Made by a program: the position numbers and the translations under genes. From a virus, in IMG/VR virus record IMGVR_UViG_3300045988_074299, positions 1 to 47,886 of that record: 47,886 nt of DNA. One strand, written 5' to 3'. Shown here piece after piece: positions 1 through 47,886 of this stretch; position 1 is the stretch's first letter; each line of letters begins with the position of its first letter. A model generated the notes under the pieces. That model saw nothing but the letters and a program-made list of their open reading frames with translations. It did no database searches and was not told the DNA's origin.

Positions 1-55
1 ACTTTCTTAGCGTCTACATATGCTTTTACTACCTTATTTTGAACTGGATTGGCAC
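1..55. repeat. Terminal direct repeat; identical to 47832..47886 (circular-closure overlap of the contig)
   Basis: Read directly: both ends read actttcttagcgtctacatatgcttttactaccttattttgaactggattggcac. The minus-strand reading frame is continuous through the junction. Confidence 0.9.
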
Positions 56-3777: not shown

Positions 3778-6700
3778 TTAATAATCCATGGCTAACTGTT
3801 TTTTTGCAAGTTTCATTTGCCTTGCTGCTTCTCTTTCATCTATAGCCTTTGGACTATTAAATATGAAAGTATCACCTAATACATTATTTGCCTTTGCTTC
3901 TTCTTTGGTAAGTACTCTTTCTCCTTCATGCAAAATTGCTCTATATCCATCATATGGAACATATGTTAGACCTTGTCTATGTGAACTTACTCCAACATTC
4001 GAAAACTCACTTGCTGTATACTTTACTTTTTCTAAGCTACTGCTTATTTTGCTCATATACGAATTTATATTTTTCTGCAGGCTACTTAAAGTTTTATCAA
4101 TTTCTTTTTTCTTCGTTTTAATTCCATCAACTATTCCTTGACCAGTTTTCTTTCCAATTGTCTTTGCTGCGCTATATGCATCCTTTTTCATTTTTGTCAA
4201 TTTCTTGTCATATTTTGCTTGTAACTTATCAAGCTTTTCATATGCTGTTTTATTAGCTTTCTCAATATTCTTTTGCAACTTTGCATAAGCTTCCTGATTC
4301 TCTCTTTCAGCCTCCTCTTTTGCCAACTTATTCCGTTGTTTCCAAAGATCACCATACTCTTTCAACTTATCTGACGTCAATGAATTTAGTGCTTCTAATT
4401 CACCAGTAGCCGCAACACCCTGGCTTCTTAACTCTTCTATCAAAGCTTTTGGTAAAATGTTTCTTCCTTCCAATTTACTCATCTGTGTATTAAATTGCTT
4501 TAATGCATCAACTTGTGACTGTAAATTACTAGTCAAATCCTCTCCATTTTTGTCAGAAGAAATTTCATATTTATCAAATAACTTAAATGCAGACAATAAA
4601 GATTCTTTACGAGAATTTACTTGCTCTTTGTATGCATCTGACAACTCCTTTACTTTTGATTTTAAGTCATCATAAACCTTTGTTACTTTTTCTTTATAAT
4701 CATCTTCTAGTGTCTTTAATTCCTCATTATAAGATTTTTTTGCTGACACATAATTCTTGTATGCTGTTAAATTCGCATCTGAACCTTTCTTGGTAGAATC
4801 ATATATCTTTCTCCAATAAGCTACTTCTTCAGCAACAGAAATCTTATTAAATGTCTCAAGCCAATCAAGCTTCTTTTCTGCTGCACTAACAATTTCTTGT
4901 GACAATTCTGACGCTGATTTTTTAGCTGCACCTTTCTTTGATTTAATGCCGACTATAATACCATTTGCAATTTGAGCTCCGACTTGATCTCTCATTACCC
5001 TAGACGGTGAATGAATATCCAATGCATCTTTAAATCCATCAACTAAACCACCGGCAAATTCACTTATATTTTTCTTTGCATTTGTAATAGAATTTTTTAT
5101 ACCATTAACAATACCATCAACAATATTTTTGCCAATCTTTAGCATTTTACCAGGTAATTCTTTAAGTTTCTTTATCAAGCTTTCAGCAAAATTCTTTGCT
5201 GCCTCTTTTGCTTTTTCAGGAAATTCTTTTTTGAATTTTTCCACCTTTAAAATTACTTTTGCTAACCAAGTAGCAATTTTTATCGGTAATTCTTTGAAAA
5301 AGTTAACTACTCCATCAACAAAGTCTTTGCCTACTTTTTTTGCCTTACCTGGCATTTCTGCTGCAAACTTTACAATATGCCCTAAAACTTGCCCTATAAC
5401 ATACCCAATCTTTTCAGGCAAGTTTTTAAAAAACTCTACGATCTTTTCAGGAAACTGCTTAATTTTCGTCTTTGCTTTTTCAAACCCATTAGGTAATGTT
5501 TTTGTAAAAAAATCTATAATTGCATTTACAACTGTACCAGTTGTGTCTTTCACTTTATTCCAAAGATTTATCCAAAAACTTCTAAACGCTTCTGACTTGT
5601 TCCAAAGATTAACGAATGCTGCAACTAAAGATCCTATGATTATTATCAATAATCCAATTGGGTTGGCAACTAATCCTGCAACAACTGTTAATTTATTAAA
5701 TACGTTTATAACTAACGATACTATAGATATTACTTTTGACATAATTAAAAGTAATGGCCCGATAGCTGCAACTATTGCTGCTATTTTTACAATTCTATCT
5801 TTAGTCTTATCATCTAAGCTATTTAGCCAAACAACAACTTCTTGTATTTTTTCAACAACTTTTTTAACATAAGGAATGATTAAATCACCTATAGATATTG
5901 CAAGAGATTCTAAGTTTGATTTTAGAATAGTAATCTGACCATTCAAATTATCTTGCATCGTATTTGCCATATCTTCTGCAGTTCCATCTGCATTATTTAT
6001 AGCCTTTGTCAACTTATCATAGTCACTTGGAGCTGCATTTATAATTGCTAACATTCCTGACATAGCTTCTTTTCCAAACAAAGCTGCTGCTGCACTTGCT
6101 TGTTCTGCTTCTGAAAGACCACCCATCTTCGTTCTAAGCATTTCCATTACTTCACTAAGCGATTTCATTGAACCATCTGTGTTTGTTAATGATAAATGAT
6201 AACGATCCATAACGGCTTGCATTGTATCTGTCGGCTTAACCATATTAGTTAAAGCGGCTCTTAATCCTGCACCAGCTTGCGATGCTTTAATACCGCTATT
6301 AGCCATTAAACCTAACGCAACTGCTGTGTCTTCTACTGAATACCCCAACGATCCGGCAACTGGTGCTACATACTTAAATGATTCACCTAGCATCGAAACA
6401 TTTGTATTTGCATTTGAACTTGCTGAGGCCATTACATCTGCAAAATGTGATGCATTTGAAACCTCTTTAACAAATCCATCTTTTACAATCTTTGTAGTTC
6501 CATCTGCTGCTAATCCAAATGCTGTCATTGCATCTGTAACAATGTCAGACGTAGTTGCTAAATCCAATCCATCTGCTGCTGAAAGATTCATTATACCATC
6601 GATACTGTTTAACATATCGTTTGTCTTCCAACCAGCCATTGCCATATAAGTGAATGCATCAGAAGCTTCTGTAGCAGAAAACTTTGTTTTAGCACCCATC

Positions 6701-32260: not shown

Positions 32261-32692
32261 CTATTCCAATTGCCATAATTTTTTACAACTCCTTTCATAG
32301 TGTTTATTTACTAATTTACTTTCTACTTTATACCATTCCTGATCAGTCATTCCTCCACAATCATACTTTTCTTGCAAATTGCAAAAACACTGCAGAAAGT
32401 ATCTATCATTATGCCAACCTTTGAACGGTCTACTTGTAAACCTATCACATTTATAGTACTTTTCAAATTTGCTGCGATCTACCTTATAACCTCTTCTAAG
32501 TATTTCATTTGATACAAGAATTGAATAACTATAAAAATCAGAAATGTCATAATCTAATATTTTATTTACCAACAAATGATTTGGTGTACCGTTTACATAG
32601 ATATTTCTTGCTATACAACAGCATTCTCTCCATTGTGATAGCAATTGCTGCCTTGGCAAAACATCTAATAAATCTATATGCCATAGTCTCAT
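32261..32692 (-). CDS. Pyrimidine-dimer DNA glycosylase family protein (DenV/endonuclease V-like)
   Basis: N-terminus MRLWHIDLLDVLPRQQLLSQWRECCCI matches the conserved MRLWH..L...LPRQQLL.Q.REC signature. Confidence 0.75.
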   Translation of the reverse strand: MRLWHIDLLDVLPRQQLLSQWRECCCIARNIYVNGTPNHLLVNKILDYDISDFYSYSILVSNEILRRGYKVDRSKFEKYYKCDRFTSRPFKGWHNDRYFLQCFCNLQEKYDCGGMTDQEWYKVESKLVNKHYERSCKKLWQLE

Positions 32693-33474: not shown

Positions 33475-33503
33475 ATTATACACACTTACCAACTAAATGT
33501 CAA
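33475..33503 (-). promoter_or_regulatory. Sigma-A-type promoter (consensus)
   Basis: Minus strand TTGACA-17 nt-TATAAT. Confidence 0.65.
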
Positions 33504-33889: not shown

Positions 33890-33943
33890 CTTGCTAATCA
33901 AAATCAGCGCCAAAACACTTCCGATATGTTCCGGCGCTGATTT
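33890..33943 (-). terminator. Candidate intrinsic terminator closing the deazaguanine operon
   Basis: 11-bp perfect stem AAATCAGCGCC/GGCGCTGATTT (33901-33911 and 33933-33943) with an inner 4-bp extension. The minus-strand RNA continues UUGAUU. Confidence 0.5.
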
Positions 33944-33955
33944 ACCAACATAACT

Positions 33956-34546
33956 TTATTTACTAAGCAAACTGTATACTTCTGCACGTAACGGTGCACT
34001 CTCTTTGAATAAACCTCTCAATACTGCACTGTTTGTTACAGTTCCTGGCTTTTTGATTCCTCTTGCAGTCATACAAGAATGTTCTCCTTCGATCACAACC
34101 ATCACATCATGGGTCTTTAATACCATCTGCAATATATCTGCAATGTCGGTTGCAATGCGCTCCTGAAGTTGCAGGCGCTTACATACCATATCAACAATCC
34201 TTGCAATCTTGCTCAGCCCGATGACTCTGCCATCCGGAATATATGCAACAGAAACCTTCATGTTATACATCAATGCTAAATGGTGCTCACAATAGCTAAA
34301 TGCATCAATATTCTTCATTAGCACGAGATCTTTTGCCTCTGGCTCTTCAAAGCATTTGTTAAACTTATTAGCGATCTCTTCGTTAGTATATCTCATACCT
34401 TCAAATACTTCGTTATACATCTTAGCAACACGCTTTGGCGTGTCCTTTAACCCTTCTCTTTCGGGATCATCGCCTAATGCTTCTAAGATTGATCTAACTG
34501 CCTGCTCAATCTTATTCATTGATTCTTTGCTTAATTCTCTTTCCAT
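33956..34546 (-). CDS. folE: GTP cyclohydrolase I
   Basis: Collinear with bacterial FolE: [40 protein letters not shown] and [16 protein letters not shown]. The ATG at 34546 is the preferred start. Confidence 0.92.
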
Positions 34547-34547
34547 C

Positions 34548-35207
34548 CTACACACCTCTTTCGTTTGGATTCCAAATGATCTTGTGTAACTGCACTTGCA
34601 CTCTACAATTCCATAGTTTCTTCTCCATCATGTAGTCAACAATTGCTGATGGCTCAATCTCGCCAAATACTGGACTGAAAAAGATCTGCGGATCGGATCG
34701 CAAACTATTGATAACCGAATATGCAGCATCGAGATCACCTTTACATCCGACTACAAACTTTAATACATCACAATTCTTTAATGTATTAAGATTCTCGATA
34801 CTCATTGCACTTTCCATTCTACTTGATGGACATTTGTAGTCCATTGTAAAAAACAGCAACCTTCTTTCGCCAGCCTGATACCTTGCAGGAACTGGCCTTG
34901 TACCATTAGTTTCAATATTTACTTCAATGCCATGCTTAATTAAACCATCAATTAACTTCTCAATATCCTGATGAATCAATGGCTCACCACCTGTGATTGT
35001 AACACGTGGAATGCCCGAACCAATAACACAATCAATAACTTCACTTGGATCCATCTCAACTGCTTTGTCCTGCTCTGTAATGTGGCTATAAGGCGTATCA
35101 CAGTAACTGCAATTTAAGTTGCAACCGTACAAACGAACAAATACAACCGGAAGTCCTGCTCTAATTCCTTCACCATCAATACTTTTGAAGATCTCAACTA
35201 CTTTCAT
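34548..35207 (-). CDS. queE: 7-carboxy-7-deazaguanine synthase (radical SAM)
   Basis: [35 protein letters not shown] (QueE-type CxxxCxxC cluster) and ITGGEPL. Confidence 0.9.
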
Positions 35208-35208
35208 C

Positions 35209-35586
35209 TTATGCCTCCGCCTGAATTCTCTGTCCCATTGACTTGATGTACGTTGCTACATTGCCTTCGCTTTCCTGAACGTCTACTTTATAGCAATAAC
35301 CAACTTCGCAAATCTTATCTACTTCATCACAAATCCACTTAGCCATATTTTCTGCTGTTGGATTAAATGGAATAACTTCGTTGATGAAGGCATGATCTAA
35401 CTTGCCATGAATTGCTTCTTTTACTTTCTTAAAGTCTACAATCATCCCATAGTCTGTCAGCTTAGTGCTCTCGCAGTAAACTGTTACGATCCAATTGTGA
35501 CCATGCAAGTTTTCGCACTTGCTCTGATACGGCAATTGCAACTTATGCGCTCCAGCGATCTCCATCCTCTTACTTACTCTGTACAT
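35209..35586 (-). CDS. queD: 6-carboxy-5,6,7,8-tetrahydropterin synthase
   Basis: EIAGAHKL...SKCENLHGHNWIVTV...MIVDFKKVKEAIHGKLDHAFINE matches QueD (His triad plus catalytic Cys). Confidence 0.88.
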   Translation of the reverse strand: MYRVSKRMEIAGAHKLQLPYQSKCENLHGHNWIVTVYCESTKLTDYGMIVDFKKVKEAIHGKLDHAFINEVIPFNPTAENMAKWICDEVDKICEVGYCYKVDVQESEGNVATYIKSMGQRIQAEA

Positions 35587-35598
35587 ACTGCTTTCCTC

Positions 35599-36387
35599 CT
35601 ATTCCCAGCTTCTATCAATGCCATTGTTGCCTACACCAACCAAAACATTGAATGCATCCATATTGCTTGCTAATGAATTGTAATCCGCACCATTCAGAAA
35701 ATCAATCTCACCAGCCGATCGGTCAACATCTTTTTCTCCGATGCGTTCACCAGCCTGTGATGCTATGTAAACGAAAGCACTGTCACAACCTCTAACCATT
35801 GGAAAATCTTCAAATATCTCGCGGACTACTCGTGAGCCATCACTACAACCAAGCAAATGAACCTCCATCGAATTATCCACTTCCCCAATTGCCTCCACAG
35901 CTCTGTATCGAACTTTGCGGTCACCAGTTTCCGTTTCTAGGAACTTAGAAACGCCCAAACAACTGATCCCATCCAATGCTAACATCCTTAACATACAATC
36001 ATACCACTCTGTAAAATCGCGTCCTTGTGGAACGCCCATTACACCAAATGGCAACTTCTCGTTATAATAACCATGAAGATAGCCAAGTGCGTCCAAATGC
36101 TTCTGTAACGTATCGTATTCATCTAATAATGTATCCGGAAGAACAACCTGCGTTGGGTGTACCAATTGATAACACTTGATCAGCTCCTCGATTGGAAGTT
36201 GTTCACCTTCTGCTGCTCCATTATCCATCAAAACAAACTTACCTTCATCAGACATTCTACGAAAGAACTTTCTGTATTCTTCCGATTGTTTAACCAAATG
36301 TGCCAAGCACATATGATACTGATTATCTTTCGTTTTCTCCAAACATCCTACCGGAACGATATGTGCAATCTTATGTTGCTTTACCAT
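35599..36387 (-). CDS. dpdA: TGT-superfamily protein, candidate DNA 7-deazaguanine transglycosylase (DpdA-like)
   Basis: By-eye matches to TGT landmarks: HIVPVGC (compare FMPVGT), VLMDNGAAEG (compare LTDSGGFQ, first catalytic Asp) and VRGCDSAF (compare GVDMFDC, second Asp). No CxCxxC zinc site. Embedded between the kinase and queD. Confidence 0.55.
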   Translation of the reverse strand: MVKQHKIAHIVPVGCLEKTKDNQYHMCLAHLVKQSEEYRKFFRRMSDEGKFVLMDNGAAEGEQLPIEELIKCYQLVHPTQVVLPDTLLDEYDTLQKHLDALGYLHGYYNEKLPFGVMGVPQGRDFTEWYDCMLRMLALDGISCLGVSKFLETETGDRKVRYRAVEAIGEVDNSMEVHLLGCSDGSRVVREIFEDFPMVRGCDSAFVYIASQAGERIGEKDVDRSAGEIDFLNGADYNSLASNMDAFNVLVGVGNNGIDRSWE

Positions 36388-36902
36388 CTTAATACCTCCA
36401 TTACTTTTTCTACGACTTCCTGCTCACTTAATCCATCTACATTGATTCTAATTGGCTCCAACCCATACTGTTCAAATATAGCTTCATATCCTTGCCGAAT
36501 TTGCTCCAACTGAGACTCGTCAATATATTCATCGCCTCTTTGGCTTAACCTTTGCTTAATTGTATCCAAAGAACACTCAAAGAAAATGATTTGGCACTGT
36601 TTTAATGTATCAACATACCATTCTTTTGTTTGTTCATTGATCAATTGCGACTGTTTATTATCTGTGATCGGATTGTATACCAAATCATCTAGCATTGTTG
36701 CTCTATCAAACAATGCCGCTTGATTGTTAGCCACTAATTCGCGAATATAACTTACTCTTCCAAACTTTTCTAACTCTGAATCGGTGTGGCTCTCTTTGAT
36801 AAACAAACAATCAACTGCTTGTGAATTCTCTACTATATCCCGCAAATGTACAAAGCATGTTGATTTACCAGTGCACTCGTTACCTGCTAAGATTGTAACC
36901 AT
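36381..36902 (-). CDS. P-loop nucleoside/nucleotide kinase-like protein
   Basis: Walker A ILAGNECTGKST at the N-terminus. 173 aa, a size and layout typical of dNMP/dN kinases. Confidence 0.55.
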   Translation of the reverse strand: MVTILAGNECTGKSTCFVHLRDIVENSQAVDCLFIKESHTDSELEKFGRVSYIRELVANNQAALFDRATMLDDLVYNPITDNKQSQLINEQTKEWYVDTLKQCQIIFFECSLDTIKQRLSQRGDEYIDESQLEQIRQGYEAIFEQYGLEPIRINVDGLSEQEVVEKVMEVLRW

Positions 36903-37294
36903 TATTTTGTCACCAGCCTTTCCACCAGCTTTTTGTATTCATCCGACTGATAGAACTGCTCATCTATCTGCTTGCGTCGACTTGATCTACATACATCAAA
37001 TTCACCTGTTGGATAACGACTCCGTAACTTGGCAATATTTAACTTTGCTACTACATCGAAATCGATTCCAAACACTGTGCATACAGCATTCAAATACCAC
37101 AATACATCCCCGCACTCTTCTGCCAGCTTTTCTTTGTTAATACATTCGCCGTTCCACAGATAATGTTTGAGGATATTATTCACTTCACCTACTTCTTCAC
37201 TTAACCCTACAGCCCAATTGGCAATTTCATCCTTCTCACTTTTATGTGGTGGAACGGCGATATAAGATTCGCTTTGATACTTCTTTAGCTTCAT
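36902..37294 (-). CDS. mazG: MazG-like nucleoside triphosphate pyrophosphohydrolase
   Basis: GLSEEVGEVNNILKH and LAEECGDVLWYLNAV (the two EExxE/D helices of the MazG fold). Confidence 0.8.
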   Translation of the reverse strand: MKLKKYQSESYIAVPPHKSEKDEIANWAVGLSEEVGEVNNILKHYLWNGECINKEKLAEECGDVLWYLNAVCTVFGIDFDVVAKLNIAKLRSRYPTGEFDVCRSSRRKQIDEQFYQSDEYKKLVERLVTK

Positions 37295-37351
37295 TTCTCC
37301 TCCTCAACTAACGTACGCTACAGCTCCATTTTATCCATCTTCTGGCAAGAA

Positions 37352-37759
37352 TCAAACTTCATCTTTATTTCTCCAGCTATATACCGTTGCACCGTTCTCG
37401 CCATCTTCCATAACAGTAACGATAATGTCCCGTTGGCCACTTCTTGGGATGGTGTTAAACAACTCACCAGCAATTGCATTGGCAACCTTTTCACAAGACC
37501 AACTACCTAATTGCACTACATCATGTTCATCGTGTGAAAACGACTTGATATATTTCTTAATCTGATGTCCAAGCATAATGAATTCAATCTCACGATCGTC
37601 ATTAAACACATCCATCTCTACTTCTACGTTAAAAATGTGGCGATGTGGTTCTCTTAAATATGCCACTTCAAGTGGCGCTTCCGGATAGCAATGAATCCCT
37701 TCAAACTGTAAGTTACATCTTACTGTTGTACTCTTGTGTCTTTCTATCCAATCTTTCAT
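37352..37759 (-). CDS. Divergent T-fold (QueD/PTPS-like) protein of unknown specificity
   Basis: FEGIHCYP...YLREPHRHIFNVEVEM...REIEFIMLGHQIKKYI is collinear with QueD (FEAAH...LHGHSF.V.LE...IDF..LK). It keeps the three His residues but lacks the Cys four residues before HxH. First gene after the operon promoter. Confidence 0.45.
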   Translation of the reverse strand: MKDWIERHKSTTVRCNLQFEGIHCYPEAPLEVAYLREPHRHIFNVEVEMDVFNDDREIEFIMLGHQIKKYIKSFSHDEHDVVQLGSWSCEKVANAIAGELFNTIPRSGQRDIIVTVMEDGENGATVYSWRNKDEV

Positions 37760-37815
37760 CCTACTTTTCTCCTTTTCTTTCTATTTATTTTTTTGCTAAC
37801 CTTAGCGTTTACTAT

Positions 37816-37844
37816 ATTATAACTCTTTTTCCGGCTCAAGTCAA
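37816..37844 (-). promoter_or_regulatory. Sigma-A-type promoter of the deazaguanine operon
   Basis: Minus strand TGTTGACT-17 nt-TATAAT, starting 3 nt after the polymerase stop codon. Confidence 0.6.
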
Positions 37845-47467: not shown

Positions 47468-47886
47468 TTAACCTAAGTGGATAACTAACGGCATGTATCT
47501 AATTGTTGATCGCGTAGACGACGTACTCTGTCCAGTAAACTTAATCGATAGATTCCAATTTGATGGACTATTTGAGAAATTGGGTCGAGTGAGAGATCCT
47601 GAACGGACAATATTCTCACCATTAAGCGTGTTAACATCGACAACAACAATACTATTTGCTGGTATTGATAAACTAACAGTAAGATTAACGGTTGCTCCAG
47701 CAGGATATTTTATGTTGCTAACTTGATAGCCGCCATTGTCTATATCCCATGATGTTTGTACAGTTATTACTTCTCCATTAGCTAAGCAAAACGGGTTTCC
47801 AGTAAATATGTTTTCGATGCCAATCATCGGCACTTTCTTAGCGTCTACATATGCTTTTACTACCTTATTTTGAACTGGATTGGCAC
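47468..47886 (-). CDS. Tail fibre / receptor-binding protein, C-terminal part (continuation of 1655..1; 47832..47886 duplicates 1..55)
   Basis: The track M at 47833 is an in-frame GTG (Val) of the wrapped ORF. Across the junction the protein reads ...NPVQNKVVKAYVDAKKV-PMIGIENIF... The tail is a beta-rich C-terminal domain. Confidence 0.8.
   Translation of the reverse strand, partial: ANPVQNKVVKAYVDAKKVPMIGIENIFTGNPFCLANGEVITVQTSWDIDNGGYQVSNIKYPAGATVNLTVSLSIPANSIVVVDVNTLNGENIVRSGSLTRPNFSNSPSNWNLSIKFTGQSTSSTRSTIRYMPLVIHLG

Follow-up and report, generated by a model that had tools for sequence, protein, structure and literature searches.

The window analysed here, i.e. the whole 47,886-nucleotide (nt) stretch of viral DNA corresponding to positions 1 to 47,886 of IMG/VR record IMGVR_UViG_3300045988_074299, carries on its minus strand a seven-gene operon (37759..33956) which, judging from its sequence, is very probably a DpdL/DpdA3 operon of the type described in Cellulophaga phage phiST, predicted to replace guanine in the phage DNA with 7-deazaguanine. 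Read in this way, it is a further example of a known system and its missing QueC is no puzzle. We see even chances that the modification is made via the deoxynucleotide pool rather than on finished DNA, and we hold the whole statement (an operon of this type together with a nucleotide-pool route) with the same half-confidence. More tentatively, and at slightly worse than even chances, DpdA3 would not be a DNA transglycosylase but the first enzyme with a tRNA-guanine transglycosylase (TGT) fold to exchange bases on free deoxynucleotides or deoxynucleosides, within a MazG-DpdA3-kinase relay that builds a pool of the triphosphate (dDGTP) of 2'-deoxy-7-deazaguanosine (dDG). What goes beyond the literature is that fusions and neighbouring genes suggest MazG and the kinase to be conserved partners of DpdA3; no post-2023 account of DpdA3, and no link of MazG or a kinase to 7-deazaguanine synthesis, was found in the literature searched.

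The first gene (37352..37759, minus strand, 135 amino acids (aa)) is identified by its signature and its homologues as DpdL, a QueD paralogue and proposed 7-carboxy-7-deazaguanine (CDG) decarboxylase. Its product contains ...AYLREPHRHIFNV..., an exact LxxxHRHxF motif, and the LREPHRHIF at residues 35-43 (L35, H39, H41) matches the DpdL signature, which stands in place of the CxxxHGH of QueD (Cui, Hutinet et al., NAR 2023, PMC10516641). When DpdL and QueD are aligned, three histidines and a glutamate are common to both and a leucine replaces the catalytic cysteine of QueD. In tblastn searches, with more than 80% of the query covered, the protein matched the DpdL of ACP17 (Acidovorax; E 4e-13) and that of phiST (CGPG_00067; 8e-5), which are the two DpdL genes cloned in the original study (PMC10516641), while the best match was in Faecalibacterium phage Roos (43% identity). 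Profile searches returned a weak match to Pfam PTPS (E 0.013) and one to phrog_17812 at 1.7e-18. DpdL was proposed as the CDG decarboxylase of phiST, but heterologous expression failed and the activity is a proposal for every member of the family (PMC10516641).

The three last genes of the operon encode homologues of the well-established enzymes that would lead from GTP to CDG. QueD, 6-carboxy-tetrahydropterin synthase (35209..35586, minus strand, 125 aa), matches Pfam PTPS at 5e-30 and NCBIfam TIGR03367 with 90.8 bits against a cutoff of 89.25, and bears CxxxHGH as CENLHGH. QueE, the radical-SAM CDG synthase (34548..35207, minus strand, 219 aa), matches the PHROG QueE family at 2.5e-42 and the clostridial-type NCBIfam TIGR03963 at 6e-76, with 255 bits just below the cutoff of 260. 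FolE, GTP cyclohydrolase I (33956..34555, minus strand; 199 aa in the ORF listing, from a GTG start), matches its Pfam family at 3.6e-67 and the NCBIfam FolE models above their cutoffs. An earlier note, made from the letters of the window alone, had named the seven products in order as T-fold protein, MazG, P-loop kinase, TGT-like protein, QueD, QueE and FolE, and Pfam, PHROGs, NCBIfam and Foldseek bear these identities out. Its labels for the T-fold and TGT/DpdA-like proteins are correct as to fold, but the DpdL (LREPHRHIF) and DpdA3 identities had been missed.

QueC is absent from the genome, which is complete since the identical 55-nt ends of the window (1-55 = 47832-47886) mark circular closure; such ends are expected where an assembly closes on itself by a k-mer overlap, and they leave a genome of about 47,831 bp. 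All six frames of the closed genome lack an SGGxDS-like motif, tblastn of two phage QueC proteins against it gave nothing below E 0.7, and neither QueC, QueF nor an amidotransferase is among the Pfam families listed for the other 57 open reading frames (ORFs), where the best 25 of 34 matched families are listed and the rest are weaker than 1e-7. Unassigned ORFs of QueC-like size had no Pfam matches. The absence of QueC, QueF and amidotransferase reported in the earlier note is thus upheld, by motif and tblastn for QueC only and by the listed Pfam families for all of them. In the window, DpdL occurs with DpdA, FolE, QueD and QueE but without QueC, and every sampled DpdL locus likewise lacks QueC; DpdL and QueC were never found in one locus (30 loci compared). 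This mutual exclusion fits DpdL as an alternative exit from CDG, and no QueC would be needed because DpdL would turn CDG into 7-deazaguanine. The expectation of a CDG-derived base other than preQ0 was therefore right in spirit, but the suggestion of CDG itself or of a new derivative is superseded by the dDG configuration of phiST, and reliance on a host QueC is unnecessary, DpdL plus DpdA3 without QueC being a published configuration (PMC10516641).

Some relatives with the same backbone keep DpdL-MazG-DpdA3 and have a transporter of the Vut_1/YhhQ family (E ~1e-42) in place of QueD/QueE/FolE (L011 6802-7845, L012 6837-7532, L013 6786-7834, L015 6829-7874, L017 4921-5610 and L010 6791-7471). 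E. coli YhhQ imports preQ0 and preQ1, and these relatives look like cases of salvage in place of synthesis. In L011, L013 and L015 the transporter is preceded by a 112-117-aa protein (CPIGxxxCTYQ...) that is QueF-like by eye but matches no family, whereas L010, L012 and L017 have the transporter but not this protein. If these phages import a precursor and yet need DpdL, then either CDG or a relative is imported or the substrate of DpdL is not simply CDG. Phage Roos (L001 5291-7887) has a different arrangement, with a ParB-like orf76, a DpdL-like orf77, a TGT/DpdA orf78 of a different family (phrog_887) and a Vut_1 transporter, orf79, thereby pairing DpdL with a DpdA/DpdB-like arrangement and a transporter; neither MazG nor a kinase is found there.

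The fourth gene (35599..36387, minus strand) encodes a 262-aa protein that tblastn and structure prediction assign to the DpdA3 family of transglycosylases, as a minimal TGT-fold barrel without the Zn/C-terminal subdomain. Over ~76-79% of the query it matches phiST CGPG_00065 (5e-12) and CP220 gp056 (1e-4), the founding members of DpdA3 (PMC10516641). It has no Pfam match. The AlphaFold2 (AF2) model, with a predicted local distance difference test (pLDDT) score of 96.5, has a TGT-type (beta/alpha)8 fold, and the 50 best Foldseek matches listed from the PDB are all Z. mobilis TGT (E ~2e-8, probability 1.0, with template modelling (TM) scores of TMq 0.6 and TMt ~0.45). This fold, on which the earlier note had staked its reading beforehand, is hence well supported. 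The relationship is visible only at the level of the fold, since a DpdA3-family profile hidden Markov model run against PDB sequences gave only chance matches (e.g. glutamate racemase, E 0.13) and did not reach TGT. D55 (LMDNGAAE) and D202 (RGCDSAF) are invariant in 56 homologues, along with QG and HLLG motifs; DNGA at D55 resembles TGT DSGG and GCDS at D202 resembles TGT MFDC, an equivalence to TGT D102/D280 that is judged by motif only. The family is large, with about 4,600 clusters at 50% identity in metagenomes. Acidity was considered as a sign against DNA binding (median isoelectric point (pI) of 5.2 for the family, 4.9 for the window protein) and discarded, because the DNA-acting DpdA1 of phage 9g is also acidic (pI 5.6).

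DpdA3-like genes also occur in a different setting. Five high-GC IMG/VR loci (L024, L026, L027, L029 and L030) have QueE and FolE, then short ORFs and a distant DpdA3-like gene, which lies directly upstream of a gene for an ~800-aa protein that is polymerase-like by eye. QueC and QueD are also seen in most of the five, not in the truncated L030, and the short ORFs are MazG-like by phmmer only in L029 and by eye in L027. No P-loop kinase was detected in these five loci.

Between DpdL and DpdA3 lie the two genes that we suggest as partners of the latter. MazG, an all-alpha nucleoside triphosphate (NTP) pyrophosphohydrolase (36902..37294, minus strand, 130 aa), matches Pfam MazG at 4.2e-9 (37 bits against a cutoff of 22) and phrog_229 at 5e-28, has the metal-binding motifs EExxE and EExxD as SEEVGE and AEECGD, and is homologous to phiST CGPG_00068 (1e-7). 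Against PDB sequences it gave weak generic MazG-like matches only (E ~0.03), with no pointer to its substrate; we infer that it converts dGTP to dGMP and PPi. The P-loop protein (36381..36902, minus strand, 173 aa) is a predicted nucleoside/nucleotide kinase of the YorR/deoxynucleoside kinase (dNK)/thymidylate kinase (TMPK) fold, with matches to Pfam dNK (7e-8) and the PHROG for thymidylate kinase (2.5e-14). Its AF2 model (pLDDT 94.8) has a nucleoside monophosphate (NMP)/deoxynucleoside (dN) kinase fold, Foldseek placing YorR of B. subtilis SPbeta at the top (3kb2, with guanine nucleotide bound; TM 0.73), followed by thymidylate kinases and then deoxycytidine kinase; phmmer also finds YorR, at 9e-6. 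Walker A is GNECTGKS, D66 is invariant and R67 present in at least 90% of homologues, and R118 and R122 are invariant. The DR motif is TMPK-like, yet Pfam and Foldseek return dNK as well as TMPK, which leaves a nucleoside or a nucleotide as substrate; the role that we favour is phosphorylation of a 7-deaza-deoxyguanosine nucleotide. DNA-acting bacterial DpdA (bDpdA) needs DpdB, a ParB-fold ATPase that hydrolyses ATP (PMC10164549). The P-loop protein was rejected as a DpdB analogue on its fold, DpdB being ParB-like, and no ParB-like family, as would be expected for a DpdB (ParB-fold NTPase with a DGQQR motif), is listed in the Pfam scan of the other 57 ORFs.

Gene fusions tie these proteins together. 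Among the closest DpdA3 homologues, drawn from a database of 5.8 billion proteins, about 34 of 120 are kinase::DpdA3 fusions (~430 aa; within P0014-P0118) that begin with a thymidylate-kinase/dNK/AAA_18 domain of ~170 residues, which shares 40% identity with the kinase of the window, and such fusions make up 21 of the 150 best cluster representatives at 50% identity. Fusions of this kind were also seen at L006 6001-7302 and L018 5503-6807. DpdL::MazG fusions occur in L008 (5190-6014), L013 (5132-6004) and L014 (469-1290), and a DpdA3::QueD fusion in P0119. In the window itself, the MazG, kinase and DpdA3 genes overlap by 1-7 nt.

Gene neighbourhoods are in line with these fusions. The P-loop kinase next to phiST DpdA3 is of the AAA_18 subfamily; in CP220 (L005 4862-7355), DpdA3 (gp056) stands between an HD::AAA_33 fusion (gp055) and an AAA_28 'thymidylate kinase' (gp057); and other P-loop kinases adjoin DpdA3 in Bacillus phage BSP7, Weizmannia phage Youna2 and L020-L025. 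In most of the DpdA3 loci examined, a MazG or an HD-type NTP phosphohydrolase is encoded nearby. The window kinase and phiST CGPG_00066 showed no detectable homology in a pairwise BLAST comparison (E 1.8), and the two, both small P-loop proteins encoded directly upstream of DpdA3, are treated here as analogous rather than orthologous. The presence of different kinase subfamilies near DpdA3 looks like repeated recruitment and, since the adjacent kinases differ by lineage and these two share no detectable homology, the association indicated by these sequences is functional, not inherited.

These parts can be assembled into a pathway. CDG made by FolE, QueD and QueE from GTP would lose its carboxyl group to DpdL, yielding the free base 7-deazaguanine, a step published as a proposal and for which family membership was tested here by sequence. 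MazG would convert dGTP to dGMP, both removing the canonical competitor and supplying the acceptor, and DpdA3 would swap guanine for 7-deazaguanine on dGMP or dG, in conflict with the published post-replicative view. The co-translated kinase and then the host nucleoside diphosphate kinase would carry the 7-deaza nucleotide to dDGTP, which the phage DNA polymerase III alpha subunit (PolIII-alpha), encoded next to the operon, would incorporate, resulting in full replacement of G.

Several observations make us favour this nucleotide-pool route. Kinase::DpdA3, DpdL::MazG and DpdA3::QueD fusions exist, kinases repeatedly adjoin DpdA3, a MazG or HD neighbour is found in most loci, and in the window the three genes overlap. 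The kinase has an NMP/dN-kinase fold, its closest structure being YorR with a guanine nucleotide. DpdAs outside the DpdA3 family keep different company, the DNA-acting bDpdA being found with DpdB, the Roos protein with a ParB-like one and the DpdA1 of 9g, where modification is partial, without MazG or kinase. Finally, no dDG was obtained in E. coli from DpdL and DpdA3 on their own, DpdA3 phages are those with complete (100%) replacement, and 7-amido-7-deazaguanine (ADG) nucleoside has been detected in CP220-infected cells (cited in PMC10516641), while a modified dGTP was proposed earlier for Campylobacter phages, as mentioned in an earlier paper. CP220 would fit the same logic by analogy, since two kinases would be required after an HD enzyme that degrades as far as the nucleoside, and two are present in CP220.

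Against this proposal stand a number of points. To our knowledge, no TGT-superfamily enzyme acts on mononucleotides. Genes for MazG and for small kinases are frequent in phages close to replication modules, as SPbeta yorR illustrates. In one clade of close relatives (L008, L010-L017), which has DpdL, MazG and DpdA3, there is no kinase within 6 kb, so that the kinase is dispensable there or a host enzyme substitutes for it. Decarboxylation of CDG by DpdL has never been demonstrated for any member, and the retention of DpdL by the transporter-bearing relatives that lack FolE/QueD/QueE makes its true substrate uncertain. The evidence here is computational, the chemistry being inferred from sequence and predicted structure. 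Moreover, DNA is the substrate of all DpdAs characterised so far (bDpdA, DpdA1 and DpdA2), and the single published study of DpdA3 judges modification to be post-replicative (PMC10516641).

The published mode is accordingly the most serious competitor, although we regard it as the less plausible one, with perhaps a one-in-three standing at best. It keeps the same dDG operon and lets DpdA3 exchange G in replicated DNA, MazG and the kinase being pool helpers or the P-loop protein an ATP-using helper like DpdB. The precedent of the characterised DpdAs and the argument of the DpdA3 paper speak for it, as do the requirement of bDpdA for ATP hydrolysis by its partner and the lack of the kinase in some close relatives. 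However, the partner has an NMP/dN-kinase fold and not the ParB fold of DpdB, the kinase::DpdA3 fusions and the near-constant MazG/HD neighbour are hard to square with an enzyme acting on DNA, and it was without the MazG and kinase genes that DpdL plus DpdA3 failed in E. coli. We also know of no complete base replacement outside pre-replicative systems (T4, SPO1, S-2L), which again counts against a post-replicative exchange.

The remaining explanations question the base or its destination. That the phage installs CDG itself (as dCDG) or a so far unknown CDG derivative, the T-fold protein having a role other than decarboxylation, is improbable. The undemonstrated activity of DpdL, its retention by relatives in which a transporter replaces the CDG-synthesis genes and the existence of dCDG at trace level in one archaeal virus (PMC10516641) would be compatible with it, but phiST and Cellulophaga phages phi19:2 and phi13:1 contain dDG, the phiST quantification shows no dCDG (PMC10516641), and the window protein has both the signature and the homology of DpdL. 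Still less credible is a scheme in which CDG from the phage is turned by the QueC of the host, alone or together with QueF, into preQ0 or preQ1 for insertion by DpdA3: some DpdA3-like loci do carry QueC (BSP7, Youna2, L024-L029), so that the family probably handles post-QueC bases, but DpdL and QueC were never together in the sampled loci. We give the least weight of all to an operon serving tRNA (queuosine-type) modification or a soluble 7-deazapurine metabolite rather than DNA. Phage queuosine genes have long been read in that way and the TGT fold is common to tRNA enzymes, yet DpdA3 lacks the Zn/C-terminal tRNA-binding parts (262 aa versus ~386 for TGT; TMt ~0.45), its closest characterised relatives come from phages with fully modified DNA, and the operon lies directly beside a DNA polymerase gene.

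The layout of the operon is that of a compact transcription unit. In the ORF listing, its seven co-directional ORFs abut or overlap by 1-8 nt, the single larger gap (57 nt) following the first gene (37759-37352), and the whole occupies 3.9 kb from one promoter to one terminator. The sigma-70-like promoter (TTGACT-17-TATAAT; 37816..37844, minus strand), which comes directly after the PolIII-alpha stop codon, scores 11/12 in a consensus scan and is among only two sites scoring at least 11/12 within 7 kb; looser promoter-like matches are not enriched (29 versus 22.5 in shuffled sequence). An AGGAG ribosome-binding site precedes the ATG at 37759 by ~8 nt. At the other end lies an intrinsic-terminator-like hairpin (33901..33943, minus strand) whose 18-bp stem closes on a 7-nt loop and after which comes a T-run (UUUUGAUU); the RNA read from 33943 to 33901 folds with a free energy of -31 kcal/mol (z -5.25) and none of 200 shuffles folds equally well. 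Seven packed minus-strand genes between a near-consensus promoter and a hairpin are hence just what had been described at the outset. The description of the operon as self-contained is only partly sustained, since it has a promoter and a terminator-like hairpin but no terminator was found between the upstream PolIII-alpha gene and that promoter, so that self-containment is not proven.

About 400 nt downstream of the operon terminator, a perfect 12/12 promoter (TTGACA-17-TATAAT; 33475-33503, minus strand) starts the next transcription unit, which encodes a DUF2786/DUF7168 protein, a glycosylase and RecA. The glycosylase (32261-32692, minus strand), 1.3 kb downstream of the operon, is a pyrimidine-dimer DNA glycosylase of the T4 endonuclease V family (Pfam Pyr_excise, 1.2e-15), i.e. 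a base-excision enzyme in a genome predicted to bear a modified purine.

Every gene of the window is on the minus strand and GC skew is strongly negative throughout. Two tandem 90-nt units, ~70% identical, at 13-192 probably encode a peptide repeat within a gene running across the circular junction. There is no close DNA relative among sequenced phage isolates, as a megablast search of 50,697 phage records with the operon gave no match, while an identical DpdA3 was found on one IMG/VR contig (L009). PolIII-alpha is 52-57% identical to its versions in Agathobaculum and Clostridium phages of the human gut. These PolIII-alpha relatives and the clostridial-type QueE make a gut member of the Clostridia the probable host. 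The nearest isolate by PolIII-alpha (57% identity), Agathobaculum phage AB434P2 (L031), has two genes upstream of its polymerase gene one annotated as deoxyuridylate hydroxymethyltransferase (3838-4500), and the place next to the polymerase gene may be one where this group of phages swaps DNA-modification cassettes of different kinds.

The DpdL/DpdA3 system is now placed in a siphovirus with PolIII-alpha whose nearest isolates infect gut Clostridia. The operon, the most compact form among those compared, could serve as it stands for rebuilding a pathway of which neither key enzyme has yet functioned in a foreign host, and fusions and neighbours suggest MazG and a nucleotide kinase as the components missing from such attempts. 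These fusions and neighbours also bring within reach of direct assays the question of how certain phages come to replace all of their G, and whether they do so before replication or after it. If the nucleotide-pool route is true, the fully substituted 7-deazaguanine genomes (phiST, CP220, 2-6A and the window phage) would be pre-replicative, contrary to the 2023 conclusion, and exchange at the nucleotide level would explain the failure of DpdL plus DpdA3 in E. coli. A natural route to 7-deaza-dGTP and a TGT-fold enzyme exchanging bases on nucleotides would be of interest to makers of modified DNA.

Among known systems, the closest is that of phiST, in which dG is fully replaced by dDG (302,000 per 10^6 nt, with no dG peak; PMC10516641). 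It has the same seven functional parts beside a phage polymerase and no QueC, and its DpdL, DpdA3 and MazG have homologues in the window; the three genes that the earlier note had set apart as outside the textbook pathway are therefore no oddities, a MazG-like, DpdL and P-loop set being present in phiST too. The two differ in gene order, which in phiST is QueD-QueE-FolE-MazG (CGPG_00068)-DpdL (CGPG_00067)-P-loop (CGPG_00066)-DpdA3 (CGPG_00065), near polymerase genes, and all seven genes lie between one promoter and one terminator in the window, unlike in phiST. Identity is only 24-31% and the P-loop proteins lack detectable homology; the host is a marine Bacteroidota and not a probable gut member of the Clostridia, and the window polymerase is PolIII-alpha. 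CP220 (Firehammervirus) likewise has a DpdA3 homologue (E 1e-4) between an NTP phosphohydrolase and P-loop kinases, and its G replacement is complete. However, its final base is ADG (as dADG), reached via a QueC homologue without DpdL, and CP220 has HD where the window has MazG, as well as a second kinase.

The DpdA1/DpdA2 phages (e.g. Enterobacteria phage 9g, with dG+) and the bacterial DpdA/DpdB/DpdC systems have in common with the window a TGT-superfamily transglycosylase and 7-deazaguanines derived from FolE/QueD/QueE, but they rely on QueC or Gat-QueC, and the preQ0-derived bases that they insert into DNA reach partial levels only. No MazG or kinase adjoins the DpdA1 locus of 9g, the DpdA proteins of these systems are longer (317 aa in 9g), and bDpdA has the ParB-fold DpdB as partner in place of the P-loop kinase-fold protein of the window. 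Among solved structures, SPbeta YorR (PDB 2axp and 3kb2) is nearest to the kinase in both fold and sequence and shares its RGDEYI lid motif; it too is phage-borne, but it has no association with a 7-deazaguanine pathway. Pre-replicative base replacement is known from triads such as dCTPase, dCMP hydroxymethylase and dNMP kinase in T4 and MazZ, PurZ and DatZ in S-2L. Their logic resembles the relay proposed here, a pyrophosphatase removing the canonical dNTP and feeding a monophosphate-level modifier that is followed by a kinase, with complete replacement as the outcome. There is no sequence relationship between them and the window proteins, and the modifier would here be a TGT-fold base exchanger, for which no precedent is known at the nucleotide level.

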